Part shown: positions 5,255 through 23,359 of the stretch, one piece after another
Layout of the letters: every line of letters begins with the position of its first letter
Numbering within the stretch: position 1 is the stretch's first letter
Source: Myxococcales bacterium
Lineage (GTDB): Bacteria; Myxococcota_A; Polyangia; Polyangiales; Houyiibacteriaceae
Length of the DNA stretch: 64,000 nt
Direction: 5' to 3'
Assembly (NCBI GenBank): GCA_024640845.1
Contig: JAHEEE010000145.1
Location: forward strand, 456-64,455
The notes under the pieces: model-generated
Database searches by the model: none
Seen by the model: the letters and a program-made list of their open reading frames with translations, nothing else
What the model was told of the DNA's origin: nothing
Translations under genes and position numbers: made by a program

Positions 5255-7465
5255 CTAGTTTCGACCGTCGGCGTGGCAATCTAGGCAGAAGTTGGGGGGC
5301 GCAGGACCACTCGGGTAGTTGCGCACCTCTCTGTGCTTCGGATCCAACTCGCTTCGCGTGTGCTCGCCATCATGGCACCCGACACAGTCGGCGTTCTGGC
5401 CGCCGACCGGCGAGCCCAGTGCCACGTTGTGACAGGACGCGCAGTCGTTGCGGTATCGCGAGTGGGCTCCCGATTGAATCGGGAAAGCGCTTTCGGGATG
5501 GATGCCACCCGTGGCGGGAAGCCACGCCGACGTCGCATGGCAGCCCAGGCAGTCGCCCGTGCCTGGGTGTGTCGTAGTCGTCGGACGTTGTGATTCGTGA
5601 CAGTCGTAGCAGCGGGTCGGCGTCGGAGAATGTGCGAACGCTGACGGTGTCCAGACCGGATACGAGTGATGACAGCTCGCACACTCCGGGTCGTAGGTTT
5701 GCGTATGGAACGGGTTGTTCGAGCGGGGTTCGCTTCCATGGCAGCCGATACAGGTGGCCGGGAGGGGCGTATGAAGTGCCACCGGGTCGGCAAGTGTCCA
5801 GTCGGTGACGACGTGGCAGCCCGCGCAGTCACCGAGGCCCGCGGCAGATTGGTGCGTCGGCGTCGCGGGCCGCAGATCGCCATGGCAAGCGTTGCAGGCG
5901 CTCGGCACGGGTGCGTGAAGGAAGTCAGCCTGTGTCCAATCCGGATAGTTTCGGTGACAGCTGGCGCACTCTGTCTGCGAGACCTGCGTGTGGAAAATCG
6001 TGGGCTGCCGCGGCTCGTTCTGGTGACACGTCAGACAGGATGCCGGAAGCGGCGTGTGGAGAGTCGCCGGGTCCGCTGCGGCCCAGCTCGTGACGAGGTG
6101 GCACGATGCGCAATCGCCCTGGCCCGCCGCGGTTTGGTGTGTGGCAGTGTTTGGCCTCTTGTCCGAGTGGCAGTCTACACAAGTGCTCGGAGCGGGTGCA
6201 TGCGGGAAGTCCGCCAGCATCCAGTCTGGATAGTCGTAGTGGCAGCGGGCGCACTCGGGCTCTACCGACTGGATATGGTAGGTCGTGGGCTCTCGCGGCT
6301 CGGTTTGGTGACACGTCCTGCAAGACGCTGGGAGCGGCGCGTGGAGCGCGTCTGGGTCGGTGATTGTCCAGTCGTCGACGACGTGACAGCGGGCACAGTC
6401 GGCGAGCCCCGCGGCGGACTGATGGGTCGGTGTGCTGGGTCTCAGATCGCGATGACAGTCGCTACAGACGCTCGGCACCGGCAAATGCAGGAAGTCGGCG
6501 GGTATCCATTCCGGATAGGTCCGGTGACAGCGTGCGCACTCCGGTTCGAGGACCTGAGCGTGGAAGATCGTGTCGGGTTGCGAGTCGTTTTCGTGACACG
6601 TGAAGCACGACGCCGGAAGTGGTGTATGGATGGCCTCCGGGTCCGTCGTCGCCCAATCGTCTACGACGTGGCAACCGGCACAATCCGCGCGACCGGCAGT
6701 CGAGTCGTGCGTCGGATCCATGGGCCTCTCTTCGCTGTGGCAGTCGGTACAGGTGCTTGGCACGGGCGCATGAGCGAAGTCGGCGGGTACCCACTCCGGG
6801 TAAGTCTGGTGACAGCTCGCACACTCCGTCTCGACGGACTGAGTGTGGAAGACGGTCTCCGGTAGCGGGTCGTTCTGATGGCACGTGCTGCAAGACGCGG
6901 GCAGGGGAGTGTGAAGCTCCGCCGGGTCCGTGACGGCCCAATCGCTGACGATGTGGCAGGAGGCACAATCCGCCTGGCCTTGCGGCGCCTGGTGCGTCGG
7001 CGTGTCCGGTCTCCGGTCGGAGTGACAGTCCATGCAGACGCGTGTTGCTGGCGCGTGAAGGAAGTTTGCCTGCATCCAATCCGGATAGCTCCGGTGGCAG
7101 CCAGCGCACTCGGTCTCAAGATCCTGAGTGTGGAAGACGGTCTCTTGTCGGGTCTCGTCTGCATGGCAAGAGATGCACGATTCCGGAAGCGGCGTGTGGA
7201 TCGTCGTAGAGACTGCGGGCACCCACTCGCGCTCCGTGTGGCAGTCCTGACAGGTGGTGGGTAGCGTCTCGTGCGGTGGGCTCAGCGCGGCCTTGCGGTC
7301 CGCCTCATGGCAGGTGAAGCATTCGGCTTGGACGATGATGCCAGGCTCGTGAGACGGGGCGGCCGTACCGCTGCAGCCGGCACCGATCGAAGCCCCCGCG
7401 CTGACCGCGAGCACCACAGGCCACACGAGCCGCCGATGGCAACTAACCCCCATGGGTGATATCAT
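5255..7465 (-). CDS. 29-heme c-type cytochrome lipoprotein
   Basis: 736 aa. Signal peptide with lipobox (...SIGAG/C). I counted 29 CXXCH motifs, with extra His at regular spacing consistent with bis-His ligation. Confidence 0.9.
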   Translation of the reverse strand: MISPMGVSCHRRLVWPVVLAVSAGASIGAGCSGTAAPSHEPGIIVQAECFTCHEADRKAALSPPHETLPTTCQDCHTEREWVPAVSTTIHTPLPESCISCHADETRQETVFHTQDLETECAGCHRSYPDWMQANFLHAPATRVCMDCHSDRRPDTPTHQAPQGQADCASCHIVSDWAVTDPAELHTPLPASCSTCHQNDPLPETVFHTQSVETECASCHQTYPEWVPADFAHAPVPSTCTDCHSEERPMDPTHDSTAGRADCAGCHVVDDWATTDPEAIHTPLPASCFTCHENDSQPDTIFHAQVLEPECARCHRTYPEWIPADFLHLPVPSVCSDCHRDLRPSTPTHQSAAGLADCARCHVVDDWTITDPDALHAPLPASCRTCHQTEPREPTTYHIQSVEPECARCHYDYPDWMLADFPHAPAPSTCVDCHSDKRPNTATHQTAAGQGDCASCHLVTSWAAADPATLHTPLPASCLTCHQNEPRQPTIFHTQVSQTECASCHRNYPDWTQADFLHAPVPSACNACHGDLRPATPTHQSAAGLGDCAGCHVVTDWTLADPVALHTPLPATCIGCHGSEPRSNNPFHTQTYDPECASCHHSYPVWTPSAFAHSPTPTRCYDCHESQRPTTTTHPGTGDCLGCHATSAWLPATGGIHPESAFPIQSGAHSRYRNDCASCHNVALGSPVGGQNADCVGCHDGEHTRSELDPKHREVRNYPSGPAPPNFCLDCHADGRN
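5485..7198 (-). repeat. Six tandem ~95-aa tetraheme repeat units inside the 29-heme gene
   Basis: The unit HTPLPxSCxxCH..FHTQ..ExECAxCH..YPxW..A.F.HAP.PS.C..CH...RP..PTH....G..DCA.CH.V..W...DP..L recurs six times. Boundaries are approximate. Confidence 0.8.
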
Positions 7466-7559: not shown

Positions 7560-8345
7560 TCAATGACCGGCCAGGGCGGCGGCCGGCATCGCGAAGCGTG
7601 AGTCGTCGAGGGGCGGGTTGACTTCCACGGTCTCGACGGTGAGGGTGTGCATGTCACTCGATCCCTCGGTCCGCGTTTCCTGGCGGTGCGGGATGAGGAG
7701 ACCTCCCTCGGTCGGTTGCCAGTCTCGGTAGAAGGTTTCGACGCGCCGCTCGCGCCCACCGACCGTACGTAGGGCCTCGACCTTGAGCTCGAGACCGCTT
7801 TCCGGGTCGATGTACACCCAGCGCGCGGCACCCCTGGGCAAGGTCACCTCAAGCTTGACGGCATCCCGCCCCTCAACCGACTCCGTCCCCAGGTACTCCA
7901 CGTTGTGTCCACGGGGGCCGTAATCGAAGAGGAGGCCGTAGAGGTCGGCTGCGTCCGCCGTCTCACGCAGCTCCTTCTCGGTCATCGGCTCGGGTGCTGT
8001 CCGCCCCTGGAACGGCACGAGCTTCCACCCCTCTTTGCCGTCGGTGCACTGGATGGCGGTCTCCCCGTCGAAGACGAACTCGAGGCACATCTTGTCGGGC
8101 CGCTTCTGCTCGAGCACGTACGGCACCTTCATCCCCTTGCCCACGTCCATCTGGCCTGTGAGGCGAAGCGAGGAGACGGCGTCCCAGGAGTCGTCCCCGC
8201 CGCGCGCCTCGATGTTTTCGGCGACCAAGTTGCCTATGGCCCGTGCGCGTCCGAGCGGCGTCCCAGTCCAAGAAAACAAAAAGAGCGTCACCAGGCCGAG
8301 CCCGAGGGCCGCTGCGAGCACGGATATCAACGTACTTCGTTTCAT
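7560..8345 (-). CDS. Secreted LolA-fold-like (outer-membrane lipoprotein-sorting family) protein
   Basis: 261 aa with an N-terminal hydrophobic anchor or signal. Sequence style resembles the LolA-like/DUF4292-type lipoprotein carriers. Only 6 nt from the upstream gene. Confidence 0.5.
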   Translation of the reverse strand: MKRSTLISVLAAALGLGLVTLFLFSWTGTPLGRARAIGNLVAENIEARGGDDSWDAVSSLRLTGQMDVGKGMKVPYVLEQKRPDKMCLEFVFDGETAIQCTDGKEGWKLVPFQGRTAPEPMTEKELRETADAADLYGLLFDYGPRGHNVEYLGTESVEGRDAVKLEVTLPRGAARWVYIDPESGLELKVEALRTVGGRERRVETFYRDWQPTEGGLLIPHRQETRTEGSSDMHTLTVETVEVNPPLDDSRFAMPAAALAGH

Positions 8346-8351
8346 AGATCT

Positions 8352-8864
8352 CTACCTCACCACCAGCCCATCGACGCGGAACTCACCGATCTCGATGCTG
8401 ACTTGCTGGCCCGATTTCACTAGCTGGCCGGGGTTGGCAAAGAACATCCAGTAGGTGCGTCCCTCGATGGGCGCGTTCGAGTTGCGGAGCGCGCCGGTTT
8501 TGGCCGGCGTGGGCACGACGAGCGTTGCGCCCGTCTCCGTGTGGGTCAGCGCCGGCTTGGTCTGGCGCTCGAACAGCGCCTTCGCCTTCTCTGCGTCGAG
8601 CACGCGGTACCGAAACTCGAGCATGTAACCGGCCGCGGTTTGTCGCACGCCCATGAGCTCGACACCCCAGCGGCGCTTGATGTAGGTCTTGTCGCGGGGG
8701 TGGTGGGCCAGCTCGGCCGAGGCCGCTGTCGCAGGGGAGACGGTGGCCTGAGCCGATCCCTCGAGCGCTCGCACTTCGGGCGCGGGTCCAACGAGGGCAC
8801 CGGCGATGGCGAGGCCGACCGCGAGAAACCCTAGGAGCGACCGGGAGAAATGTAGATCCACCAC
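8352..8864 (-). CDS. Secreted hypothetical protein
   Basis: 170 aa with a signal-like N-terminus (LLGFLAVGLAIAGALVG). Coding-like composition. Sits 10 nt downstream of the giant gene. I recognise no motif. Confidence 0.55.
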   Translation of the reverse strand: MVDLHFSRSLLGFLAVGLAIAGALVGPAPEVRALEGSAQATVSPATAASAELAHHPRDKTYIKRRWGVELMGVRQTAAGYMLEFRYRVLDAEKAKALFERQTKPALTHTETGATLVVPTPAKTGALRNSNAPIEGRTYWMFFANPGQLVKSGQQVSIEIGEFRVDGLVVR

Positions 8865-8874
8865 CTAGCCCTCC

Positions 8875-11800
8875 CTAGGGGATCACGCAGGTGCCCTGGT
8901 TGACCGGGGGCCCTGAATTGGGCGGGCAGTCTGCGTCGACCGCGCAAGTCGCCCCAGCGTTATCTCCGAACTCACAGATTCCGGGTGCGTCCTCGTCGGC
9001 GCCGATGTCAAAGTCGCCTCCCAGCGGCCGGACATCGTTGTCGTAGTCCATGCTCGGCGCATTGGTCGCTGAGCCGGCGTCGATCGCCGATGAAGGCGCG
9101 GCGATGTGGTAGTTCCAGGGCGCGCTTCCGTCCGGCCAGGCCTGCGTCAGCGGACCGTAGCGCACGTCGATCCAGGCCGCGCCGCCCTCGTCCAGCGCGG
9201 GAAGCGCCAGCATCGGGCCAGGGGGGGTCTCAAGGGTGCGACCACCATTGCAGTAGGCGTTCACCAGCCCAGGGTCACCCGACGTATTGCTGGGGTCGTA
9301 GCCGCTTGCGTCGGTCAGCACCGAGGAGACCGGGTCGAGCATAAAGCCTCCGCCGAGGACCCCGAGATCCTGGTAGTTCGCGGGGGAGGGACACTCCCCG
9401 ACGATGCTCTGGCTGAGGACTGGCATGAGCCCGGCGCCCGCGGGCAGGGTGGCATCGTAGTGGAAGGAGCGGTTCTCCCACACGATGTTGTTCGACAGGA
9501 TCGGGTTCGAGAAGTCCCGGTAGTTGCCGGTGTTGTTTTGAACCGGGATGGCGGCGTTGAGCGCTGTGCTGTGGGGCTCCGAGGAGATGCCCGCCGGCTG
9601 GTTCGCGGAGACGTTTGGGTCCCCAGTCGTGAACGTGGCGGAGACCGTCGCCGTGCTGTCGTTGTGAGCGATCGTGTTGTTGACGATGAAGCTGCGCGCA
9701 GTGTCCTGCGTGGACACCCCGCCGCCCGACCAGCCCGCGACGTTGTTGACGATCATGTTGTTGTTGAGCGTCACGGCGTACCACATGCCAGGTCTGGCCC
9801 TCCCGTTATTGGGGTTGTTCGAGTTGGGGATGTCGCGGCCGTTGACGAACTGGGTGCGGACCCCGCCGCCGTGTCCCGCTCCGGCGTGGTTGCCCTGGAT
9901 GAGGTTGGCGTCCACGAGGACACTGCCCGAACCGCGGGTGAGGCCGTCGACCGCTGGCGGCTCTCCCGCAATGAACAACCCGCCCCCGGACCGCGTCGTC
10001 GCTTGAGCGAACGACTGGTTGAGGACGATCCGGTTGTCCTCGATCACGCCGTTGTTGCTGAGGCCCAGGTGCCCGATGCCGCCCCCATCGCCCGTCGTGA
10101 AGTTCCCGCAGACGAAGTTGTGGCTCACGACGTAGAAGTCGCTGCCGGTGCAGAGCGAAAGACCGCCGCCGGCCCCGCCGAGGCCACCGTTCTGGATGAT
10201 CGCGTTGTCGTGGATCTTCACGTGTGGGTTGAAGGCGAAGGGGCCCTCTCCGGTCAGCTCGAGGAACGGCCGGCCGACACGGATGCCGCCGTGGTACGAG
10301 CCGGCGTTGCCGAACACGCGGTTGTTGGCGATCTCGAGGCCGTGCGCGTACCCGTTGACGAAGATGCCGCCTCCGATGTCGCCACCTGTGATCGAGAAGC
10401 CGTCGATCCGAGACTCGAAGCTCCGGAAGGCGCTGGCCGGCGGCGGGCCCTCGCCGGAGTCGAACACGCCGAGCACCGTGATGGCGGCACCCTCCTCGGT
10501 CTCGACGCCGGCGGCCCCATCGGGCTGGGTGGGCAGGGCGTCCACTTCATCGGTGCAGCCCGCTCCGATCCCGAAAACGCAGTCCATTTTTGCCCGCCAC
10601 GCCGCCATCGTTTCCGCAGGGCGCTTTGCGGCATTGAGGAAGGTCGAACCGGCGCCCGCGCCCTGCAGGCGGACGGGCTTCCACATGATGACGAGCTCGT
10701 CGTACGCGCCCGGCTCCACGAGGATGAGCGCGCCCCGCGGCGCATTGTCGATGGCGTCTTGGATCGAGCCACCGGCCGCCACGCGGATCGGAATCTCATT
10801 GGACACGGTGACCGTCGCGGAGTGGACCGTGGAATTTCCATTGTCGCGCGTCACGACCAGCTCGCCGCTCATCTCCGTTGCCGGCGCCGTTGCCTCGATC
10901 GTGTCCGCATCCCAGCTGGTGATGGCAAGCGGCACGCCACCCACGGTGACGCTGCTGCCCGGTCCCTGAGCTCCGAACCCGAAGTCGCGCTGGATCGTTT
11001 TTTGCGCCGCGGCCCCGCTCGCGAGTGGTCCCTCGTAGGCCGGGTTCGGCACCTCGACCGAGCTGCCGAGGGAGTGGATCGTGAGGGTTCCGCCCGGGGC
11101 GACGAGAGGCCCCGCGCCCGTGCCGTCTACCTGGCGAACCGACGGCGTACCCGCAGGGAGCGCGCAATCCGGCGGGTTGTATCCGGAAGCGAAGGCCGAC
11201 ACTGGGAGCACCGGCGTATCGAGATACGTCGTCGTCCCCGGCATGTATTGGAACGTGTAGCAGAAGTTGCTGTACGCGGGGTTGTACTGGGGGTCGACGA
11301 TCGACTGACCGGGGTTGGCCGGGTCGGGGATCGGGCCCGGGTCGTTCATGCACGTGGTGAGCATCGCGGGTGAGTAGCCGCTCGGCGAGGGCATGTTCGC
11401 CGTGAACGTGGACGGCACGAGCCCGTTGATGCGCCCCCACTGGTCGGAGTAGATCCGCGAGATTTCCGCGCCCCGGTAGTCGCGGATCGAAACCGGCACG
11501 AAGGGGGGCGCCCACTTCTCACCGAACTGCGGCGAGAAGATGCTGAACTCCTGCGCCAGGTCGTCGAGAACCATGCCCGCGAAGTGGCCGGCGATCGGCG
11601 CTCCGGTGAAGAGGAAAAAGTCGGCGGCGGCTTGTCCCTGGTCGGAGAGGATGACCTCTTTGCGGTCGCAGAGCGGCCTCAAGTCGCCGGCGAACGGCGC
11701 CTCGATCATCTCGTCGGGGAAGAGGCTCAGGTACGGAGGCACCTCACGCATCTCGCCGACGCACCGCGGCTGGGCGAGCCCGGGCTCCGGGCCCATCGCC

Positions 11801-14800
11801 GCCAGTACGGTCGCTAGGTTGGGCATGATCATGACCATCGCGCCGCCGGGCATCATCATCGCCACCGGCGCCATGCCGAAAGCGTCCCCGAAGCCGACGT
11901 TGTTGTCTTCTTCCTTCAGAAGATCGTAGCCGGGCGGGGGCACCACCTCGACGACGTACTTGCCGGGCGGGATATCCATGAACGCGTAGCCGCCGTCAAA
12001 GACCGCTGGCCGAGCCTGGTTGAAGTTGCGGAGCCCGTCGTAGCATTTGTCTACGGGTCCACCCGTGAGGATCGCATCGCTCGGGTCGGCGCCGGGGCAG
12101 CCCGTCGGCAGGCTGTCGTCCCAGCTGTCGGTCGTGGTCTCCTCCACCAGGGCGAGGGCGGTCGTCAACGCGCCATTCGCATCGAAGTGCGCCTGGATCT
12201 GGGTCGCGGTCAGCGCAGATTCATAGATCGCCACTTCATCGATGGTGCCGTCAAAGATGTGGCCCCTCGCACCGACGGGGTCCGAGTCGGCGCCGATCGT
12301 GATCGGCAAAGCGTTGACGTTCGTCGTGGCCGTTCCGAGCGCAACGCGATCCACCTCGACACCGTCGACGTAGAGGATCGCGTCGGTGCCATCGAACACC
12401 CCAACGACGTGGAAGGTGGTCCCGGCGGGCGGCGTGGTCGGGGCTTCCGCGATCACCCAAGCCGTATCCGTGCTGTTCCGGACTTGGAAACGCAGCTTGC
12501 CCTGGTTGAGCCACAGCAGCCACGCTCCGGTCACACCGATCTCGTCCTTCACCACGATCCGATGCCCCTCCGTATCGATCGTGTTGGCGTTGACCCACGC
12601 CTCCACCGAGAACGCGCTATCCGACAGCGCGGTCACACCGGTGTCGACGAAGTCGGTGGTGGTCGTTCCGTCGAATCCTGCTGCCGTATTGGGGCTATTG
12701 CCGAGCAGTCCCGTCGCCGGCAGCGTCACCGTCGACCCATAGGTGCCATCACTGCCCCCGGTCTGATCGAGCGCTGGTCCCACGGTCGTTGATTCGCCCA
12801 GACGGTAGTAGTGGTTCGGCCCGTCGGCGAGAACGGTACTCGCGTAGGCGCTCGTCTCCACCTCCCGGTAGAGGCGGACCTTGACGCCCGGTATGCCCGG
12901 CTCCCAGGGCTCGCCGACGGCGAGCCGCGGGTCATTCTCGGCGCGGGTCGATGGATAGTAGACGATCCCCGAGATGCCGCCGTTTTCACCCGGTGCGTAG
13001 GGGGCCTTGCCCCATTCGAAGATGCTCGTCTGGCCGAGGAAGCCCTGGAAGCCCTCGGTGAGGACGGGGCCGAGCTCGGTGCGCGTCGTCGACATGCCGT
13101 CCGCCTGCACCTGCGGGTTGAGGACGTTGCCTGTCGCGCTCACGTCGCCCCCGCCGTCGACGGTCACGGTCAGGCCCGTCGCCTTGAAGCGCGTGAAATC
13201 GACCTCCAGCACCTGCCAGTGAAAGAAGGGGAATGTCTGGTCGAAGGGCACGAAGCCTTCGGTGTCGGTCGGGAAGGACTGATTGACCGTGCCGTCGCGC
13301 CAACGCAGGTTCACCGCCTGCTCGGCAACGGGCCCCTCGTCGGGATCACGAATGCCGTTCTGGTTCTCGTCCAGGAACACGTTGTGCTCGGTGCGCGCAA
13401 ACCATTGGAAGACGGGCACGTTGCCGACTGCTCCCCCACCGGGCAGCTCGACTCCGCGGTAGGCGATGATCTGATCGAGGTAGCTGTCCCAGACCACGAG
13501 CTGATAGCTGCCGTCGGGTACGTTGCTGATCGTGAAGTTGCCATCGGCGTCTGCCTGGACGGCGGCGATGTTGGGACCGAGGCCACCGGCGGAGTTGAGG
13601 CCGACCCAGGCTCGGGTGTGAGCCAGGGCGTCGTACGATTGGCTGTCCCAGAGCGTTTGGTCGGGCGGGCGGGACATGTGAAGGTTGGTGACGCGTCCCG
13701 TGACGGTGTTGGCGCCGCCTGGATTGACGAGGTTGTCGGGGTTGACGAAGCCGACGAACACGTGCCAGCCGGCGGGCCCGAACTCTTGGAAGAAGGGGGG
13801 CTCGCCCGCCTTCACCCAGGCGTCGATGACCTTGGTTCCTTCGATGGTCGAGGTCTGCGTCCAGGTTTCCGGGCCCGGGGGCGCGACGGCGATCACGCCG
13901 TACTTACCGGGGTAGAGGTTCTTGATGAGCGCCTGGCCCACCAGACCTGCCTCCTGGTTCGCCACGGTATTGGGGCAGGTGAGGATGACCCCCATGGGTG
14001 GCGGCGCATCCCCAAAGCAGTCGAGCGAGTTCTGCAGCGGATTGCCGAAGGCATCCTGCATCATCGTCCCGCCCGAGATGCCATAGCGTCCGCCGGCATC
14101 CTCGAGGGTGATCTGGAAGCCGCCGAGGCCGAGGCCCGCCTCGCCGCCGTCGACGGCGCCGTTGGTCGGGCTGCTGTCCTCGAAGACGTAGACACTGATC
14201 TGGGCCGAAGGCAACGGCTGCTTGTTTACGGTGACCGTCACCGCCGTGGCGGCGGGCGGAATCCGGGCGCCGCCTATGGTGTGGCCCGTACCGGTCGCCG
14301 CGTCGGCGGGCAGGACCGAGACGTAGTAGTGCTTCGTCGGGTCGAGCGCGAGCTGGGCGAACTCTGTGGCGCCGCTGCCCTGCGCCACGATCGGCATGTA
14401 GCTTTTGTGGAAGTTCGTTGCCAGCGTGTCCGTCGGGGGAGGCACGACGCTTGGGTCCGGCTGCCACATCGCGTCCTCTTCGACCACCCAGCGGTAGTCG
14501 GTGACGGCGACGTCGAGGGGGTCCTTCACAGTCAGCGCGATGTTGGCGACCGGGTTGATGTTTAGCGTCACCGTCGCGGGATTACTCAGCCCGCTGCCGT
14601 CGCTGGCGCGATAGGAGAAGGTCGCGGCGGTGCCGCCCGTGTACTCGAACGAGCCGTCGGCATGCAGCGTGAGTCCCGCGGGGGCGGTTCCCTCGATCAC
14701 CGCCCTGAGCGTATCGCCGTCCGGGTCCATGTCGTTGCCGAGGACGCCGGGGGCCGCGACTATGATGTCTGGCCCAATCCCGTTGACATAGGGTCCATCG

Positions 14801-16803
14801 TCGGCCGCTACTGGGAGGTCATTCTCGAAGGAGACGTTGAGGGCGACTTCGACGAGCGTTCCGTCGCCGGCCCTGTAGGTAAAACCATCGCTGCCCGAGA
14901 AGTTTTCGTACGGCGTGTAGGTGAATGAGCCGTCGCCGTTCAGTACGAGCATGCCGTTCGACGGTCCGCTCACCAAGGTTGCACCCGAAATCCCGCCGGG
15001 GGCGGCGCCGATCAGGGCGGTGTCTTCGATGGCGTCATAAGATGTGAGCACAGGATCCGGGGGCTGCGTCGGAGGCGGAGAACCGGTGCCTACTTTCAGG
15101 TACGCCAGCATCCCGCCGTCCGCCTGGTTGTCGCTGCTGAGATCGAGCATCCGGTCGAAGAGCGGGTACGTCGCATCGACGGCGGGCACGGCGACGAGGA
15201 CGTCGAGGGTCTTGCCCGCGGGCAGGAGCGACGATGCCTGGCGCCGCAGGAGTCCCGGATACGGATTGCCGTCTTCCGCGACCGGTCGCATGTCGAGGCC
15301 GACGATGGCCGGTGCGTGAGAGCGCAGCCCCGCGTTGAGGAAGCGCAAGAGGAGGTCTTTGCCCGGCATGCCCGCAGGTATCGCCGGGGGCGGCGACGCC
15401 GTGTCGTACGACTCAGCGTTGATCAGGAAGTAGGTCGGATTGTAGTCGACCGTGCAGGGATAGCCGACGTCGCCGACCGCGTATTCGGCCAGGTTGACGC
15501 ACGCATGGGTCAGCGGCAACGCCATCCCCGCTGCCTCGGCGACCCGCATGTTCTGCCACGGGTCGATCTCGCTGAAGAGCGCCACGGGCTCGGCGTTGTT
15601 CGCATCGAAGTGCGCCTGGATCTGTGTTGCGGTCAGCGCAGATTCATAGATCGCCACTTCATCGATGGTGCCGTCAAAGATGTGGCCTTTCGCACCGACG
15701 GTGTCCGAGTCGGCGCCGATCGTGATCGGCAAAGCGTTGGTGTTCGTCGTGGCCGTTCCGAGCGCAACGCGATCCACCTCGACACCGTCGACGTAGAGGA
15801 TCGCGTCGGTGCCATCGAACACCCCAGCGACGTGGAAGGTGGTCCCAGCGGGCGGCGTGGTCGGGGCTTCCGCGATCACCCAAGCCGTATTCGTGCTGTT
15901 CCGGACCTGGAAGCGAAGCTTGTCCTGGTTGAACCACAGGATCCACGCCCCGGTCACACCGATCTCGTCTTTGGCCACGATCCGATGTTGTCCATCCGTT
16001 GCGGCGGCGTTGACCCAGGCTTCCGCGGAGAACGCGCTAGCCGACGTGGACGTCACGCCGGTATCGACGAAGTCGGTGGCGGTCGTTCCGTCGAATCGAG
16101 CAGCGCTGTCGGTGCCGTAGCCCAGCAAGCCCTTCTTCACCGTCGACCCGTAGGTGCCGTTGGTGGCCCCCGACCCCAGATCGACGGCTGGATCCGCGTT
16201 TGTTGATTCTCCAAGACGGTAATAGTGGATCGGCCCGTCGGCGAGAACCGTACTGGCGTAACTTGGGGTGCTGGGATGCACGATCAAGGCGCCATAAAGG
16301 CCCATCGGCACCTGGATCGACGATTGAGTCCCGCTCTGGTAGAGGTAGGTGCCGGGGCGTAAGGGGCTCCAGGTGTAGTCGGCCGTGAGATCAGGCGCCG
16401 TCTCATGGGTGAACGACTGGACGCGCCGCCTCCCCTGACCGTCCGTGCTCCACTCCGGGTCACCACCGCCGGCCTGACCCGGGATCACGATGGAGACCGG
16501 CGTATCCAGCGTGTTCTTCAGATGAATCGTCAGCGTGTCGGTGTCCGAGAGATGGATCTGGGGCCCGGGCGCGTCGGTCTCGGACGGGAGATCACAGCTG
16601 GTGAAGGTCGCATCCGTGCATAGCGCGAAGCCCCACATGGGGACCGTGCCGCCCTCCCCGGACAGGACCTTGTCGAAGCCCTGCGCCTGAAGGTAGACGT
16701 CGTTGGCGGCGGCGACGGCGGGTGAGACGCTCGCGGCGAGGAGGAGGCCAGCGCATGCAAGCACGGCTGTCCTAAAAATGGCCTTCAGTAAGGTCGATCG
16801 CAT
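8875..16803 (-). CDS. Giant (2,642 aa) secreted multidomain protein. Domains: ligand-less MCO-like cupredoxin pair, 2x LamG, cadherin/VCBS-like, SdrD-B/CarboxypepD-like, IPT/TIG, right-handed beta-helix, Cys-rich tail.
   Basis: Start moved to the ATG at 16803 (MRSTLLKAIFRTAVLACAGLLLAASVSPAVAAA signal peptide, GGAGGAGAAG upstream, 17 nt after the upstream stop). Domain calls come from sequence style. Cupredoxin: PGPQIHL...LYGALIVH. LamG: FDGT..FV.....FS.EAWV...LYVDG. Cadherin-like: DGSFTYTP..F.G.DGFTY, GNDMDPDGD. TIG: SVTVGGVPL. Beta-helix: GG.FV.G....I.NN runs. Confidence 0.9.
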   Translation of the reverse strand: MRSTLLKAIFRTAVLACAGLLLAASVSPAVAAANDVYLQAQGFDKVLSGEGGTVPMWGFALCTDATFTSCDLPSETDAPGPQIHLSDTDTLTIHLKNTLDTPVSIVIPGQAGGGDPEWSTDGQGRRRVQSFTHETAPDLTADYTWSPLRPGTYLYQSGTQSSIQVPMGLYGALIVHPSTPSYASTVLADGPIHYYRLGESTNADPAVDLGSGATNGTYGSTVKKGLLGYGTDSAARFDGTTATDFVDTGVTSTSASAFSAEAWVNAAATDGQHRIVAKDEIGVTGAWILWFNQDKLRFQVRNSTNTAWVIAEAPTTPPAGTTFHVAGVFDGTDAILYVDGVEVDRVALGTATTNTNALPITIGADSDTVGAKGHIFDGTIDEVAIYESALTATQIQAHFDANNAEPVALFSEIDPWQNMRVAEAAGMALPLTHACVNLAEYAVGDVGYPCTVDYNPTYFLINAESYDTASPPPAIPAGMPGKDLLLRFLNAGLRSHAPAIVGLDMRPVAEDGNPYPGLLRRQASSLLPAGKTLDVLVAVPAVDATYPLFDRMLDLSSDNQADGGMLAYLKVGTGSPPPTQPPDPVLTSYDAIEDTALIGAAPGGISGATLVSGPSNGMLVLNGDGSFTYTPYENFSGSDGFTYRAGDGTLVEVALNVSFENDLPVAADDGPYVNGIGPDIIVAAPGVLGNDMDPDGDTLRAVIEGTAPAGLTLHADGSFEYTGGTAATFSYRASDGSGLSNPATVTLNINPVANIALTVKDPLDVAVTDYRWVVEEDAMWQPDPSVVPPPTDTLATNFHKSYMPIVAQGSGATEFAQLALDPTKHYYVSVLPADAATGTGHTIGGARIPPAATAVTVTVNKQPLPSAQISVYVFEDSSPTNGAVDGGEAGLGLGGFQITLEDAGGRYGISGGTMMQDAFGNPLQNSLDCFGDAPPPMGVILTCPNTVANQEAGLVGQALIKNLYPGKYGVIAVAPPGPETWTQTSTIEGTKVIDAWVKAGEPPFFQEFGPAGWHVFVGFVNPDNLVNPGGANTVTGRVTNLHMSRPPDQTLWDSQSYDALAHTRAWVGLNSAGGLGPNIAAVQADADGNFTISNVPDGSYQLVVWDSYLDQIIAYRGVELPGGGAVGNVPVFQWFARTEHNVFLDENQNGIRDPDEGPVAEQAVNLRWRDGTVNQSFPTDTEGFVPFDQTFPFFHWQVLEVDFTRFKATGLTVTVDGGGDVSATGNVLNPQVQADGMSTTRTELGPVLTEGFQGFLGQTSIFEWGKAPYAPGENGGISGIVYYPSTRAENDPRLAVGEPWEPGIPGVKVRLYREVETSAYASTVLADGPNHYYRLGESTTVGPALDQTGGSDGTYGSTVTLPATGLLGNSPNTAAGFDGTTTTDFVDTGVTALSDSAFSVEAWVNANTIDTEGHRIVVKDEIGVTGAWLLWLNQGKLRFQVRNSTDTAWVIAEAPTTPPAGTTFHVVGVFDGTDAILYVDGVEVDRVALGTATTNVNALPITIGADSDPVGARGHIFDGTIDEVAIYESALTATQIQAHFDANGALTTALALVEETTTDSWDDSLPTGCPGADPSDAILTGGPVDKCYDGLRNFNQARPAVFDGGYAFMDIPPGKYVVEVVPPPGYDLLKEEDNNVGFGDAFGMAPVAMMMPGGAMVMIMPNLATVLAAMGPEPGLAQPRCVGEMREVPPYLSLFPDEMIEAPFAGDLRPLCDRKEVILSDQGQAAADFFLFTGAPIAGHFAGMVLDDLAQEFSIFSPQFGEKWAPPFVPVSIRDYRGAEISRIYSDQWGRINGLVPSTFTANMPSPSGYSPAMLTTCMNDPGPIPDPANPGQSIVDPQYNPAYSNFCYTFQYMPGTTTYLDTPVLPVSAFASGYNPPDCALPAGTPSVRQVDGTGAGPLVAPGGTLTIHSLGSSVEVPNPAYEGPLASGAAAQKTIQRDFGFGAQGPGSSVTVGGVPLAITSWDADTIEATAPATEMSGELVVTRDNGNSTVHSATVTVSNEIPIRVAAGGSIQDAIDNAPRGALILVEPGAYDELVIMWKPVRLQGAGAGSTFLNAAKRPAETMAAWRAKMDCVFGIGAGCTDEVDALPTQPDGAAGVETEEGAAITVLGVFDSGEGPPPASAFRSFESRIDGFSITGGDIGGGIFVNGYAHGLEIANNRVFGNAGSYHGGIRVGRPFLELTGEGPFAFNPHVKIHDNAIIQNGGLGGAGGGLSLCTGSDFYVVSHNFVCGNFTTGDGGGIGHLGLSNNGVIEDNRIVLNQSFAQATTRSGGGLFIAGEPPAVDGLTRGSGSVLVDANLIQGNHAGAGHGGGVRTQFVNGRDIPNSNNPNNGRARPGMWYAVTLNNNMIVNNVAGWSGGGVSTQDTARSFIVNNTIAHNDSTATVSATFTTGDPNVSANQPAGISSEPHSTALNAAIPVQNNTGNYRDFSNPILSNNIVWENRSFHYDATLPAGAGLMPVLSQSIVGECPSPANYQDLGVLGGGFMLDPVSSVLTDASGYDPSNTSGDPGLVNAYCNGGRTLETPPGPMLALPALDEGGAAWIDVRYGPLTQAWPDGSAPWNYHIAAPSSAIDAGSATNAPSMDYDNDVRPLGGDFDIGADEDAPGICEFGDNAGATCAVDADCPPNSGPPVNQGTCVIP
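12176..12846 (-). repeat. LamG-domain DNA repeat, copy 2 (intragenic)
   Basis: Aligns with 15599-16260. Includes identical runs of 54 nt (12211-12264 = 15634-15687) and about 85 nt. Confidence 0.9.
15599..16260 (-). repeat. LamG-domain DNA repeat, copy 1 (intragenic)
   Basis: Partner of 12176-12846. Inserted between the two cupredoxin-like domains. Confidence 0.9.
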
Positions 16804-16820: not shown

Positions 16821-18176
16821 TCACTCGACAATCTCGATCTGGGGGGCTTCGATGATCAGCATGGTCATCATCCCGCCGGGGAAAACGTCGTTGTTCACCA
16901 TCTCGCGCTCGGTGTGCGAGTGCCACATGTACGCAAAGCCTGCGTTTGGATTGAGACCGCCCTCGCCGGGGGGAAGGCCGCCGGCCGCTCCGAGATAGGG
17001 GCTGCCGCCGTAGAAGCCGCCGAAGGTCAGGACGCTCTGACCGGGCAGGGTCACGGGGATCGCCCGGTTGTGGTCGCCGCACCACTCGCGGTAGTTATCA
17101 TCGGTCGCGACACTGTGATATCCGTCCGCGTCGGGGGTGCACGCGCTGCCGTCGCCCGGAGTGTGACCGTACATGTCCCAGCCGAGGTCTTTGCCGGTCC
17201 ACTCGAAGATCGCGTCGACCGTTCCGCCCGGCGCCGACGGAATGGTGAAGAGCAGCGGGCCAGCGAGCTGATTGGCGTCGGTCGCGCTAACGAGCAGGCG
17301 GCCATCACGGGCGAGGACGCGCGCGTGGTTCCCGTGGTGGTGGAAGGGATGCATATGGTGACCCGCGCCCACCACTCGCATCAGCAGCCGCTCGCCAGGG
17401 TGCATGCGCGGCATGCAGTTGTAGGGCTGGCTCGGCAGCAGATCGCGGCCGGCCGCGGACATCGTGTCCGGCGCCGCGCGACCGTTGAGGAGCCAGTACT
17501 CCGGAACGTACGGCTCGGTGATGACGTCGATCGGTCCGGGTCCCGAGGCCTGTAGCTCCGCCGCCCGGTGGATGTCGATGTCCACCTCGCTCAGGAGGAA
17601 CAGGTACTCGCGGTCGAAGCAGGTGCCCGAGTGGCCGTAGGCGGAGGCGGTGCACCCGGCGGCGGGCCCCGCCGGCTCGACGATGAGCGCCCCGTAAAGG
17701 CCCATCTCGACCTGCAGATCCGGTCGCGTGCCGCTGTGATACTGGTAGGTTCCCGGTTCGCCGGCCGTGAAGGTGTAGGTGACGGACCCGCCGAGCGGGG
17801 CTTCCTGGGTCAGGAGGCCCGGCACGCCGTCCGTCGATGTCACTTCGTGACCAGGGAACAGGATCGACACGTTGCCCGCGGCTGCGGGAAGCGCGTTGTG
17901 GAGAGTGACCGTGACTGTCGCACCTTCCGTCACGATCAACGTCGGCCCGGGTAGCTGCATCGGGTCGGCGCCGTCGCTGTAGCCCCACGAGTAGATGGAC
18001 CCGCCGTCCGCGATGGAGATGTAGCCCGCGCTCGCCGTGAGCGAGAACGTTGGGCCGGCCACGCCGTCGATCCCGGCACGTGCGGCTTCAGGAGCCATCA
18101 GCAACACCAACGTGGCGGCGAATGAGAACAACCGGACCACCCGGAAATTTCGCTTCTTTGTCTCGAACCTAGTCAT
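16821..18176 (-). CDS. Two-domain multicopper-oxidase-like protein lacking the type-1 Cu site
   Basis: 451 aa with a signal peptide. Domain 1 motifs are degenerate (ILFPGHEV, YQYHSGT). Domain 2 has a canonical HPFHHHG (HxxHxH), but its last motif reads WHSHTEREM...GGMM where HCHxxxH is expected (Cys to Ser, His to Glu). Confidence 0.85.
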   Translation of the reverse strand: MTRFETKKRNFRVVRLFSFAATLVLLMAPEAARAGIDGVAGPTFSLTASAGYISIADGGSIYSWGYSDGADPMQLPGPTLIVTEGATVTVTLHNALPAAAGNVSILFPGHEVTSTDGVPGLLTQEAPLGGSVTYTFTAGEPGTYQYHSGTRPDLQVEMGLYGALIVEPAGPAAGCTASAYGHSGTCFDREYLFLLSEVDIDIHRAAELQASGPGPIDVITEPYVPEYWLLNGRAAPDTMSAAGRDLLPSQPYNCMPRMHPGERLLMRVVGAGHHMHPFHHHGNHARVLARDGRLLVSATDANQLAGPLLFTIPSAPGGTVDAIFEWTGKDLGWDMYGHTPGDGSACTPDADGYHSVATDDNYREWCGDHNRAIPVTLPGQSVLTFGGFYGGSPYLGAAGGLPPGEGGLNPNAGFAYMWHSHTEREMVNNDVFPGGMMTMLIIEAPQIEIVE

Positions 18177-18186
18177 TGCCGCTCTC

Positions 18187-19449
18187 CTAGTTGATCCGGA
18201 TCTCGGTCATCATTCCGCCGAAGTTTTCGGCGTCGTTTGCCAACTGGTGGAGGTTGGTGGTGTAGAGGAAGTAGGTGCTGCCCGGCGCCAGTCCTGCGGT
18301 GTCGAGGATCACGTCCGCGGACTGACCACCGCCGAGCGTCACCGAGTTGGTTTTGTAATAGAGGTTGTTGCCCCAGTCGTCGCGCAGCAGTCGCGCATCC
18401 AACGCGACCACCTCCATCGGGATCCCGTTCGTGCCCAGTGTGTTGAACTGGGTGACGTTGAGGTTGGAGATGCGGAGCAGAATGCGGTCGCCCGCGTTCG
18501 CCGTGATCAGGCTCGACACCGGTTGCGAGGGTCGGCCATCGGTGGAGAGGACGCCCGCGTTCACGGTGTCCGGGTAGCCACGGCCGTTCAGGAGGAAGTA
18601 GCGGTCCTTCATCCCGGCGAAGGGCAGTGGCTGCACGTTGAAACTGGCGTCGTGGAAGTCGGGGTCGAAGGAGCCGATTTGGATCGGCACTTCGACGTCG
18701 TACCGCGTGGAACCGTCGCCGTCGTTGTAGGCGTACGCGTCGCTCGGAGCGTGACCTACAGGGCAGACACTGCCAGGGACCGCGGGGTCGTCAGCTATGG
18801 TATCGCAGCGGTTCTGCCTCGGCCGCACGTACAGGTTGCCGAGCATCCCCATTTGCATGTGCTCGGTGGCCTCGACGTGGCAGTGGTACATGTACGTACC
18901 GGCGTCCTTGGCGTTGTAGTAGTAGGTGAAACTGGCCCCCATGTTGATCGAAACCGAGGCGTCGGGGACACCGTCGAAGATCGACGCCGCCTGCGGGAAG
19001 CCGTGCCAGTGGATGGTGTGGGGGTCGAACAGATCGGGCCGAAACGCCATCCCGACATTGGTGTTGGTCAGAAAGAGCTCGTCGTCTTCGTCGACCACAA
19101 TCGTCGGAGCCGGACTGTTCGCCGCGAGCATTCCCTGCTCCATGACCCATCCGGGATACTGTTCGGGCGGGACGGGGGCGTCGTCAGGGAGCGCGATCCG
19201 GGCAAAGCTGAAGATGTACTGCTGCTTCTGCGCATCATCGGCCATCGTCACCAGACCGTCGCCTGACGCGACGTGGTCGCACTTGATCCCCGCTTCTCGC
19301 GTCGTGTCGTCGCCGTCGGTGTTCGGGTGCAGGACCGTCTCGGTCGGGCATTGGACGTAGATGTTGCTTTCCTGAGCGCTTGCGGTGGCGGCCACGCACA
19401 GCACGGAGATCACGATGAGCGCCGGCCGGCGCGTGTTTCTCAAGACCAT
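18187..19449 (-). CDS. Two-domain multicopper oxidase with all Cu ligands in domain 1
   Basis: 420 aa. N-terminus ...NTRRPALIVISVLCVAATASA is a possible Tat or Sec signal. HTIHWHG and YHCHVEATEHMQMGM lie in the first cupredoxin domain. The second domain has no His motifs. Confidence 0.9.
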   Translation of the reverse strand: MVLRNTRRPALIVISVLCVAATASAQESNIYVQCPTETVLHPNTDGDDTTREAGIKCDHVASGDGLVTMADDAQKQQYIFSFARIALPDDAPVPPEQYPGWVMEQGMLAANSPAPTIVVDEDDELFLTNTNVGMAFRPDLFDPHTIHWHGFPQAASIFDGVPDASVSINMGASFTYYYNAKDAGTYMYHCHVEATEHMQMGMLGNLYVRPRQNRCDTIADDPAVPGSVCPVGHAPSDAYAYNDGDGSTRYDVEVPIQIGSFDPDFHDASFNVQPLPFAGMKDRYFLLNGRGYPDTVNAGVLSTDGRPSQPVSSLITANAGDRILLRISNLNVTQFNTLGTNGIPMEVVALDARLLRDDWGNNLYYKTNSVTLGGGQSADVILDTAGLAPGSTYFLYTTNLHQLANDAENFGGMMTEIRIN

Positions 19450-19629: not shown

Positions 19630-20130
19630 CTACAAGGCTGCATCATGAAGCGTCGGTGCGATCTCTTCCCACCGGGGCGGACGTCCTGTGGGGTTCTCAT
19701 GCCAATAGCGGTGCACGATCTTCTTACACTCGTATGGTGTGATTCCCGTGCATTTCTTGAAGGCTCGTTCGAAGGTCCTGAGATCTTTGAAGCCGACGGC
19801 TAACGCCAAGTCGACGATACCATGATCGTGGTTGCTCAGCAGGAGCAGCGCGCGATTGATCCGCTCGCGTGAGAGCCAGTCATGGAAAGAGATACCTACT
19901 TTCTCCCGGAACAACCTGCAGAAGTACGTCTTCTCGAGCGCGACGAGCTTGGCCGCGTCAGCCAGACTGAACGGTTCGTCGAAGTGTTCGTCGACGTGCC
20001 GCTTGATCTTCGCCAAACGCGGGCAGAAGACGAACATGTGCTCGTTGATTGGAGAATCCAGAAGTAGCTGCGCTGCAGACAAAACGGACGACCACCATGT
20101 CCTGAGCCATCCTCTTGGGGGTGGGCCCAC
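19630..20130 (-). CDS. Small AraC-family (MarA/SoxS-like, DNA-binding domain only) transcription factor
   Basis: Double HTH signature (...FSLADAAKLVALEKTYFCRLFREKVGISFHDWL...IVDLALAVGFKDLRTFERAFKK..G.TP). No room for a ligand domain. The start is uncertain: GTG at 20130 or ATG at 20037. Confidence 0.75.
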   Translation of the reverse strand: MGPPPRGWLRTWWSSVLSAAQLLLDSPINEHMFVFCPRLAKIKRHVDEHFDEPFSLADAAKLVALEKTYFCRLFREKVGISFHDWLSRERINRALLLLSNHDHGIVDLALAVGFKDLRTFERAFKKCTGITPYECKKIVHRYWHENPTGRPPRWEEIAPTLHDAAL

Positions 20131-20217: not shown

Positions 20218-20377
20218 TATTGTCGACTCGGAGCGATTTTAACTATCTGAATTTCCTTATGACTTCGCGTGTCTTAGGCTTTTTACACGTCTTCGGGGGT
20301 GCGCAGCCCAGCTACCTAAGTTAAGCCTAATGTGCTATTTTCTAAGAGTTCGAGTTTCTCTTATCTGGCGAGTGGCG

Positions 20378-21064
20378 ATGCGACTTATGTGGATCGGGGT
20401 CCTAGGCGCAGTGGTGCTGGCCGCGGCCTGCACGGGCAGCACACAGGACCACGCAAGATTGGAGGTTCGCAGCAGTGATTGCGTCGTGTGTCATGCGGAT
20501 GACGTACAGCACGCGCTCAACCCTCCGCACGAAGGCTTTCCCGACACCTGCGGCAGTTGCCACGGCAACGAGGCTTGGAGCCCGGCGGCGTTCCAGCACA
20601 ACTGGCCTCTCAACGGTGCGCACGCGATGCTCGAATGCGCCGCCTGCCATCTTGGGGACCCACCCGTCTATGCGGGAACGCCTACGTTGTGCGTCGGCTG
20701 CCACCAGGACGACTACGACAGCAGCCCCTTTCCGGGGCACGCCGAGTTTCCAACCACCTGTGAGAACTGCCACACCACGACGGCATGGAGCCCAGCCACG
20801 GGAGGCACCCATCCCGAGAATGCGTTTCCGATCCAAAGTGGGCCGCACTCACGATACCGGGACGACTGCGTCTCGTGTCACAATCCCGAGCTTGGCTCGC
20901 CCGTGGACGGTGAGAATGCTGATTGCGTCGGTTGTCATGATGGACAGCACACACGCGCACAGATGGATCCCAAACACATCGAGGTTGGTGGTTATCCGAG
21001 CGGTGCAGCCCCTCCGAACTTCTGCTTGGATTGCCACGCGGACGGCATCAACCGCGACGACTAA
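20378..21064 (+). CDS. 8-heme c-type cytochrome lipoprotein
   Basis: ATG at 20378 gives MRLMWIGVLGAVVLAAA/C, a lipobox. 8 CXXCH motifs. The C-terminal ~85 aa are homologous to the C-terminus of the 29-heme protein. Confidence 0.85.
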   Translation: MRLMWIGVLGAVVLAAACTGSTQDHARLEVRSSDCVVCHADDVQHALNPPHEGFPDTCGSCHGNEAWSPAAFQHNWPLNGAHAMLECAACHLGDPPVYAGTPTLCVGCHQDDYDSSPFPGHAEFPTTCENCHTTTAWSPATGGTHPENAFPIQSGPHSRYRDDCVSCHNPELGSPVDGENADCVGCHDGQHTRAQMDPKHIEVGGYPSGAAPPNFCLDCHADGINRDD

Positions 21065-22444: not shown

Positions 22445-23359
22445 GTGGGGACCCGCTTGCTGTGGGGTAGCGTGGGGACAGAGGCGAAGAGCGGTCGTAA
22501 GCGCCGCGCGGATCGGAGCGCCGTCTTGCTGGTGCTGCTGGGGCTTTGCGTCCTCGGCTACATGCTCTGGGATCTCGGCGAGGACTTCTACCTCTCCGAC
22601 CTTCAGTCGAGGGTCGAGCATGGCGACTACGAAGCACTCCGACCGGGAGGTCTCGTCGGACATGGATACGGCATCGTCGGGACGATCCTGATCCTCGCCA
22701 ATCTGCTCTATCTCGCGCGACGCCGCTTCGCTCGGTGGTCGCTCGGCTCGATGGCGACTTGGCTCAACCTGCACGTCTTCACGGGTCTCGTCGGCTCGCT
22801 CCTGATCCTCTTCCATTCCGCCTTTCAGTTTCGGACACCCATCGCGGTGGTTACCGCGATTAGTCTCGGCGTCGTCGTGGCCACCGGGATCGCAGGCCGG
22901 TATCTCTATGCGCTCACGCCGCGTCCTGACCGCCAGGCGCTCGAACAGGCCCTGGCGTCGTTGGACGAGCTAGCACCCGGATGCAGTGCCCGCGTGTATC
23001 ACGCACTGGCGATTCACAAGGTCACCCAGGTCGACACGCACCGCTGGTTGCTCGCCAAGCTCGCGGCGATCCCCAAGTGGGCGCGCGACGCACGCTCGCG
23101 CGGTTTCATCGTCAGCTACGTCATCGAGGATGCTCCCGTTGCGGACATCCTCCAACGCAAGGAGCGAAGACGCTTTCGGAAGGCAAAGCGGGTGGTCCGC
23201 AAGTACGCAACGCGTGAGGTAGTCGCCACCATGGCCTCGTCGCTGCTTCAGTCCTGGCGCGGGCTTCATAGGTTTCTTGCCTTGATTCTCATTCTGTTGG
23301 TCCCCGTCCACATCGCGGTGGCTTGGATCTACGGCTATCGCTGGATCTTCTCGCAATGA
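22445..23359 (+). CDS. Polytopic membrane protein with two H-x13-H helices (putative di-heme cytochrome b / quinol-interacting anchor)
   Basis: About 5 TM helices. HVFTGLVGSLLILFH and HRFLALILILLVPVH each space two His by 13 residues. GTG start. The stop overlaps the next start (ATGA at 23356-23359). Confidence 0.65.
   Translation: MGTRLLWGSVGTEAKSGRKRRADRSAVLLVLLGLCVLGYMLWDLGEDFYLSDLQSRVEHGDYEALRPGGLVGHGYGIVGTILILANLLYLARRRFARWSLGSMATWLNLHVFTGLVGSLLILFHSAFQFRTPIAVVTAISLGVVVATGIAGRYLYALTPRPDRQALEQALASLDELAPGCSARVYHALAIHKVTQVDTHRWLLAKLAAIPKWARDARSRGFIVSYVIEDAPVADILQRKERRRFRKAKRVVRKYATREVVATMASSLLQSWRGLHRFLALILILLVPVHIAVAWIYGYRWIFSQ

Follow-up and report, generated by a model that had tools for sequence, protein, structure and literature searches.

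Genes of the cluster

The DNA analysed here is a window of 64,000 nucleotides (nt) of contig JAHEEE010000145.1 (assembly GCA_024640845.1) from a Myxococcales bacterium, and all positions given below are those of this window. Its minus strand contains six genes arranged head to tail, which encode two multicopper oxidase (MCO)-like proteins, termed A and B, a giant exported protein, two further exported proteins, termed S1 and S2, and a multihaem c-type cytochrome; all genes of the cluster lie on this strand. A is a protein of 420 amino acids (aa) encoded at 18187..19449, and B is a protein of 451 aa encoded at 16821..18176. Each of them has a signal peptide and two cupredoxin domains. The assignment of A is based on Pfam, a PDB match and an alignment of orthologues, and that of B on Pfam, PDB matches and hhalign. 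A matches PF07732, PF07731 and PF00394 (Cu-oxidase_3, Cu-oxidase_2 and Cu-oxidase), and its best PDB match is 3G5W (8e-17). B matches PF07732 and PF07731, and its PDB matches include 3G5W and 2ZWN. The giant protein, which is assigned by its Pfam and NCBIfam domains and its orthologues, is encoded at 8875..16803 and consists of 2642 aa when counted from the ATG at 16803. Its N-terminal ~615 residues (14959..16803), identified by Pfam and hhalign, contain two cupredoxin domains as well and are termed module C. A search of NCBIfam gives no specific model for A, B or the giant.

A sequence-only reading of this window had noticed that A and B each carry half of a trinuclear copper site, and had proposed that they form a hetero-oligomeric laccase-like enzyme with a single type-1 copper site. 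It had also placed the two genes 10 nt apart. This spacing is verified: the stop codon of A and the start codon of B are arranged as TAG GAGAGCGGCA ATG, and a GGAG sequence overlaps the stop codon. The B gene is separated from the giant gene by 17 nt, and the ATG of the giant is preceded by GGAGAAGAG.

Copper ligands of A, B and module C

Two-domain MCOs are trimers, in which residues from two protomers coordinate each trinuclear cluster, and those of type C contain the type-1 copper in the N-terminal domain (PMC13151041). The cluster of 9CCK is likewise described as being built by two protomers (PMC11761707). A has the features of type C in this classification (PMC13151041), with two cupredoxin domains and the type-1 site in the N-terminal one. 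Among solved structures, those closest to A and B by sequence are the type-C blue copper oxidase of Nitrosomonas europaea (3G5W) and the metagenomic type-C enzyme mgLAC (2ZWN). Their domain 1 provides H-x-x-H-x-H and H-C-H, and their domain 2 provides H-x-H twice without Cys. A and B keep one half of this ligand set each.

The sequence-only reading had assigned a full type-1 site and four cluster His to domain 1 of A, and both motifs are found where it had placed them. HTIHWHG (residues 144-150, 19000..19020), in which H-x-x-H-x-H contains one type-1 His and two cluster His, aligns to HTIHWHG of 3G5W domain 1. HCHVEATEHMQMGM (residues 189-202, 18844..18885), which follows the pattern HCH-x5-H-x4-M, aligns to YHCHVNVNEH..M of the same domain. 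In this motif two cluster His flank the type-1 Cys, and the type-1 His and the axial Met follow. The type-1 copper ligands of A are therefore H144, C190, H197 and M202, and its cluster His are H147, H149, H189 and H191, all in domain 1. The five positions of domain 2 of A that are equivalent to the ligands of B are occupied by T333, N336, L338, Y396 and T398, none of which is His, in agreement with the earlier statement that this domain is devoid of cluster ligands.

B is the reverse of A. In its domain 1 the type-1 and cluster ligands are replaced by the degenerate strings ILFPGHEV and YQYHSGT, as had been noted before. Its domain 2 keeps HPFHHHG (residues 276-282, 17331..17351) and HSH (residues 419-421, 16914..16922), the latter followed by the invariant E423 and E425. 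These motifs align to HAIHTHG and IHDH of 3G5W domain 2 and to HAMHSHG and FHDH of 2ZWN domain 2. The cluster His of B are H279, H281, H419 and H421, and H276 is a further His of the same motif. The sequence-only reading had identified both motifs correctly, but had regarded the absence of Cys from HSH as a special loss. This part of the claim does not stand, because domain 2 of 3G5W and 2ZWN also lacks Cys and has HDH at this position. Neither B nor C has a type-1 site. No single chain carries eight cluster His: A has four and B has four, in complementary domains, and these domains match the half-sites of 3G5W and 2ZWN, as had been anticipated for two-domain MCO structures.

A and B also differ from the type-C enzymes outside these motifs. 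A has an extra N-terminal extension of ~85 aa with a conserved Cys/His pattern, and B has an extra insert around residues 335-400. Within the extension of A (residues 26-110, ~19120-19374), the C34/C57 pair and H41/H59 are invariant, and H266 is invariant as well. Beyond the classical ligands, H203, H369, S420, E423 and E425 are invariant in B, where the last three belong to the string H-S-H-x-E-x-E. These extra invariant residues of A and B might bind an additional metal or provide a path for protons.

The cupredoxin domains of C are located at ~16264-16704 (domain 1) and ~15004-15528 (domain 2), and the first of them corresponds to the PF07732 (Cu-oxidase_3) match at the N-terminus of the giant (1.8e-7). 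When B and C are compared by hhalign, the alignment spans both domains with a probability of 100% and an E-value of 2.5e-43. The probability is 99.8% for A versus B, and 98.5% for domain 2 of A versus domain 2 of C. Judged by these profile alignments, A, B and C are paralogous to one another in both domains, C being closest to B. The consensus of C from 74 genomes contains none of the eight A-type ligands and none of the four B-type cluster His, and 60 of the 74 sequences keep a His equivalent to H276 of B. The fold-core motifs PGQ..., SGT...Q..MGLYGALIV and GGM are kept in C as in B, and the giants of Thiomicrorhabdus, Thalassotalea and a Holophagae genome share the module.

Downstream of C, the giant contains cadherin-like/Big_9, SdrD-B-like and LamG domains, a right-handed beta-helix and a choice-of-anchor Q domain. 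This composition suggests that the giant is a cell-surface or extracellular protein, which would presumably serve as the tether of the oxidase. LamG (Laminin_G_3) is present twice, at 12176-12475 and 15599-15898, and the two copies share 97% DNA identity over 300 nt; 12586-12715 and 16006-16135 form a further pair. The second copy is located within the linker between the two cupredoxin domains of C, where no insertion is present in the three orthologues compared, and the duplication is either a recent intragenic one or an assembly artefact. Some orthologues of B (606-631 aa; e.g. P0173, P0184, P0198, P0207, P0231 and P0232) have an HpiC1-like (PF22825) insertion inside the cupredoxin module, and the Thiomicrorhabdus giant has one at residues ~110-300. 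These insertions indicate that the modules tolerate lineage-specific domain insertions.

Conservation of the ligands and of the gene order

One genome per species (~185,000 species genomes) was scanned, and 80 loci were fetched. A relative of A is present in 520 of these genomes. In metagenomic collections, more than 7,800 proteins fall under the E-value cut-off for each of the three protein searches, in which at most 8,000 candidates were scored. The fetched loci are derived from Gammaproteobacteria (Thiomicrorhabdus, Woeseiaceae, Thiohalomonadales, Sedimenticola and Thioploca), Thiobacillus, Acidobacteriota, Myxococcota, Desulfobulbaceae, Nitrospirota, Planctomycetota and Binatia. The alignments contain 80 orthologues of A, which are 55-76% identical to A of the window, 77 orthologues of B and 74 of C.

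All eight ligand columns of A are invariant (80/80), when only 15.7% of all columns are. All five His of domain 2 of B are invariant (77/77), when only 11.5% of all columns are. A naive estimate of the chance of such invariance is 4e-7 for A and 2e-5 for B. The positions that have lost their ligands behave differently. At the five domain-2 positions of A, the 80 orthologues have T, N/Y, L, Y and T, and a single His occurs in one sequence only. At the positions of the A ligands, domain 1 of the B orthologues has V, V/L, P, (H), S, G, Q and L, where the one residual His is H147 of YHSG, present in 54 of 77. Every ligand is kept in the best 120 metagenomic homologues of A and in the best 120 of B. 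The split set of 4 + 4 His holds even at 45% identity, in Cupriavidus metallidurans CH34 and Paraburkholderia; Burkholderia cenocepacia, Ralstonia solanacearum and a Gallionellaceae genome belong to this beta-proteobacterial clade as well. The CH34 megaplasmid (L086, 1331097-1360551) has the full A-B-giant-S1-S2 cluster, of which the PLSDB record has no annotation, and so has Paraburkholderia (L087), where each gene of the cluster is annotated as 'hypothetical protein'.

This pattern bears on the possibility that the cluster His are evolutionary leftovers, and that A, B and C are structural cupredoxin-fold components of a giant adhesin system, without catalysis and with no copper other than perhaps the type-1 copper of A. 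C demonstrates that the fold can persist without metal ligands, and the giant is adhesin-like, both as expected from this possibility. However, unused ligands have decayed in domain 1 of B, domain 2 of A and the whole of C, whereas no member of the 4 + 4 set varies between Acidobacteriota and Betaproteobacteria, down to 45% identity, and the copper chaperone SCO1/SenC often adjoins the cluster. It is therefore very improbable that these His are leftovers.

A and B might instead form separate homo-oligomers with partial metal sites, A acting as a blue-copper carrier or a nitrite-reductase-like protein and B as a copper-binding or chaperone-like protein, since copper nitrite reductases are found among the PDB matches of both. 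Copper nitrite reductase (NirK) has no His after the type-1 Cys, and its type-2 site consists of two His of domain 1 and one His of the neighbour's domain 2. A has the MCO-type H-x-x-H-x-H and H-C-H instead of this pattern, and B keeps the exact H-x-H plus H-x-H pair of a type-C domain 2. The identity of A and B as NirK is rejected on these ligand patterns. Two complementary and invariant four-His sets that are encoded side by side are also hard to explain if they never meet, so that separate homo-oligomers are quite improbable.

The order A-B-C is found in all of the 71 loci that could be typed, with median gaps of 11 nt between A and B and 16 nt between B and C; 11 further loci are too short or ambiguous to be typed. 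Two layouts are distinguished. In 35 loci, including that of the window, the order is A-B-[C fused to the giant]-S1, and S2 usually comes next. In the other 36 loci, the order is giant without C-A-B-C-S1, and C is a separate protein of 330-630 aa that has a signal peptide of its own. The domain fusion of C and giant seen in half of the lineages physically links the oxidase module to the giant. In loci with the giant upstream (e.g. L037-L085), long 'giant + A' proteins (P0243, P0244, P0247 and similar) were considered as true fusions and rejected. They resemble gene calls that read through from one gene into the next: a segment similar to a C-terminal sorting signal (with a Gly-rich GGGCF motif, a hydrophobic helix and the residues KRR) is present at the junction, and A's own signal peptide comes after it. 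In Thalassotalea sp. ND16A (L002, 5103-6382), A is split into two open reading frames of 280 and 146 aa, owing to either a frameshift or a sequencing error, and B and the giant are intact.

A predicted hetero-trimeric ring

An eight-His cluster is expected only where domain 1 of A meets domain 2 of B, because A lacks the domain-2 half, and B lacks the domain-1 half and the type-1 site. The proposal of a hetero-oligomeric laccase-like enzyme with a single type-1 site is supported in this respect: those of its predictions that can be examined by sequence, which are the alignment of the half-sites, the invariance of the 4 + 4 His and the adjacency of A and B, agree with the results. It needs one extension, however, in that the third, ligand-free paralogue C most likely fills the third place of the ring. 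The ligands are kept by exactly one domain 1 and exactly one domain 2 among the three of each, and these two are on different chains, which is the pattern to be expected of a pseudo-threefold A:B:C ring with a single active interface. It is likely that A, B and C form a hetero-trimer, which would contain one type-1 site and one trinuclear cluster at the interface between domain 1 of A and domain 2 of B, and which would be tethered to the giant surface protein. The enzyme probably works only as this mixed three-protein ring, for which we infer a stoichiometry of 1:1:1.

The following mechanism is proposed. A, B and C, three paralogues of a type-C two-domain MCO each exported by its own signal peptide, would join as a pseudo-threefold ring with six cupredoxin domains in all. 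The eight His of the trinuclear cluster would come together at only one of its three domain-1/domain-2 interfaces, that of A domain 1 on B domain 2, and the sole type-1 copper, located in A, would be wired to the cluster by the His-Cys-His triad. Electrons from an external donor would enter at the type-1 copper of A, and O2 would be reduced to water at the cluster of the A/B interface. C would bring no metal but close the ring, and, fused to or encoded beside the adhesin-like giant, would anchor the oxidase on the cell surface or on a solid substrate.

A counterpart of this cluster may be present in Sideroxydans lithotrophicus ES-1, in which three cupredoxin proteins (Slit_1816-1818) are more abundant on magnetite than with dissolved Fe(II) (PMC11429942). 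These proteins are predicted to be extracellular, their role is called unknown by the authors, and similar clusters are mentioned in Paraburkholderia and Ralstonia (PMC11429942). Two of the proteins are reported to have canonical MCO motifs, and a split site or a hetero-oligomer is not mentioned (PMC11429942). As described there, Slit_1812-1818 encode two proteins with MCO motifs, a third and much larger cupredoxin protein that has adhesin and lyase-like domains, small hypothetical proteins and SCO1/SenC. The orthologous locus of the Gallionellaceae genome has the same layout as this description. Among the papers searched, no other one cites these Slit genes.

Several points weigh against the A:B:C hetero-trimer. 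The abundances of the three ES-1 proteins, given as percentile ranks, are not equimolar (PMC11429942), and the link to Slit_1816-1818 is made through the description in that paper and the Gallionellaceae orthologue, and so is set by description. The AlphaFold monomer models of A and B have a mean predicted local distance difference test score (pLDDT) of ~56 and are worst at the copper loops. Foldseek with these models gives 3G5W, 2ZWN and nitrite reductases as the top matches, but with such poor models and low TM-scores it adds nothing beyond the result from sequence. No A-B, B-A or B-C fusion is found among the best 150 representative clusters. The ligand logic needs only A beside B, so that an A-B-B or A-A-B arrangement would also give one cluster, and the place of C in the ring is derived from co-occurrence and homology.

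The last two points are in favour of a variant in which the A/B interface cluster is real, but the ring (A-B-B, A-A-B or a larger assembly) is formed without C, which would be an anchor or substrate-binding module of the giant: the ligands demand a contact between domain 1 of A and domain 2 of B only, and none of the fusions sought in those 150 clusters puts C in the ring. This variant is unlikely, because C is a full two-domain paralogue closest to B, is located directly after B in every typed locus, is encoded by a separate gene with a signal peptide in 36 of them, and has fold-core motifs conserved like those of B. In addition, a B-B or A-A interface would leave four-His half-sites unpaired.

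The hetero-trimer with C would differ from the type-C enzymes in the number of its active sites. In 3G5W and 2ZWN both half-sites are on one chain, and the homotrimer contains three clusters and three type-1 sites. In contrast, the half-sites of the A/B/C family are distributed over two gene products and the third paralogue has none, so that a ring would have at most one cluster and one type-1 site. The family is set apart from the type-C homotrimers because no chain carries both half-sites. To our knowledge, all structurally known two-domain MCOs are homotrimers with three identical active sites. A literature search for hetero-trimeric or split two-domain MCOs gave only the alpha-alpha-alpha' form of Nmar_1354, which arises by proteolysis, and complexes in which one catalytic subunit is complete by itself. 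Among the latter, the iodide oxidase IoxA/IoxC of Iodidimonas is a secreted multi-protein MCO complex with SCO1/SenC and type II secretion genes nearby (PMC9415286), and the Mnx complex (MnxG with MnxE3F3) is a secreted MCO purified as a multi-protein complex (PMC5622069). Unlike A and B, IoxA and MnxG each hold all four copper-binding regions, and their partners do not complete the cluster.

The predicted end state of the A:B:C assembly resembles ceruloplasmin, hephaestin and bacterial MnxG, in that six cupredoxin domains would form a pseudo-threefold ring in which one interface holds the only trinuclear cluster. By its number of ligands, an A:B:C set, if it assembles, could build exactly one such cluster. 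The six-domain MCOs are, however, single polypeptides with type-1 sites in even-numbered domains, whereas A, B and C are three chains whose one type-1 site is located in an odd (N-terminal) domain. They are encoded by three genes or modules with their own starts and signal peptides instead of one six-domain polypeptide, C being fused to a 2000-aa surface protein in the window, and they are similar in sequence to the type-C two-domain enzymes, not to ceruloplasmin. The classic model derives the six-domain oxidases from a two-domain trimer by triplication, followed by the loss of two clusters. If the A:B:C ring exists, a cluster formed only between two gene products, together with a dead third paralogue that closes the ring, would be a new assembly principle for MCOs, and the origin of ceruloplasmin-type oxidases by gene triplication and site loss would become directly testable.

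Neighbouring genes and possible function

The 29-CxxCH multihaem c-type cytochrome (736 aa, 5255..7465, minus strand; domain/motif search) begins 95 nt downstream of S2 on the same strand and is a possible electron partner of the oxidase. Three further multihaem c-type cytochromes are located on the other side of the cluster, on the plus strand, with 8 (20330-21064), 20 (23323-24996) and 10 (24708-25910) CxxCH motifs. Very large multihaem cytochromes are recurrent, not universal, in this family: they are found in the window and in 9 of 58 long loci. Giant cytochromes with 21-39 CxxCH motifs are encoded beside the cluster in L028, L031, L063 and L064. SCO1/SenC adjoins the cluster in at least 21 loci and would perhaps load the copper. 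Type II secretion or pseudopilin genes are located beside the cluster in Thiomicrorhabdus (L001) and in the Gallionellaceae locus (L088), and the proteins are presumably exported by type II secretion.

A reasonable guess, and no more, is that solid or metal donors supply the electrons of the oxidase. The Sideroxydans data and the multihaem cytochromes nearby suggest Fe(II) or mineral-bound electrons as a candidate substrate. The magnetite induction in Sideroxydans, which is matched by description, is the sole expression result and points to the oxidation of a solid-phase donor. A broader interpretation, offered tentatively and with some doubt, is that A:B:C is a natural hetero-trimeric two-domain MCO and a living example of the postulated intermediate between homotrimeric and six-domain oxidases, which would be secreted, tethered by the giant and act as an extracellular O2-reducing endpoint for electrons from minerals or metals (Fe(II)), fed in some lineages by giant multihaem cytochromes. 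The family is common, and its hosts include sulfur and iron oxidisers, Desulfobulbaceae, Acidobacteriota and Myxococcota, as well as tractable bacteria such as CH34, Burkholderia cenocepacia and Ralstonia solanacearum, where its annotation goes no further than 'multicopper oxidase domain-containing' or 'hypothetical'. The number of oxidase genes would be overestimated by annotation pipelines in which A and B are taken for two independent laccases.

A gene for an AraC-family regulator (19630..20130; domain search) is located directly upstream of A on the same strand. Downstream of the giant, S2 (7560..8345, minus strand) is an exported protein of 261 aa with faint LolA-like similarity, as indicated by profile searches and locus comparison. 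Among the typed loci it is detected only in the layout with C fused to the giant, and not in all of these. S1 (8352..8864, minus strand) is a small exported protein of 170 aa without a recognised family, defined by its tblastn orthologues. It has no Pfam, NCBIfam or PDB relative, even when a 26-sequence profile is used for the search. S1 follows the cluster in both layouts and is detected by tblastn in most loci with enough downstream sequence, and its conserved core is WG.E...R..AAGYML.FRYRV.D..KA...VP.P.K.G.LR...Y.M.F.NPG.

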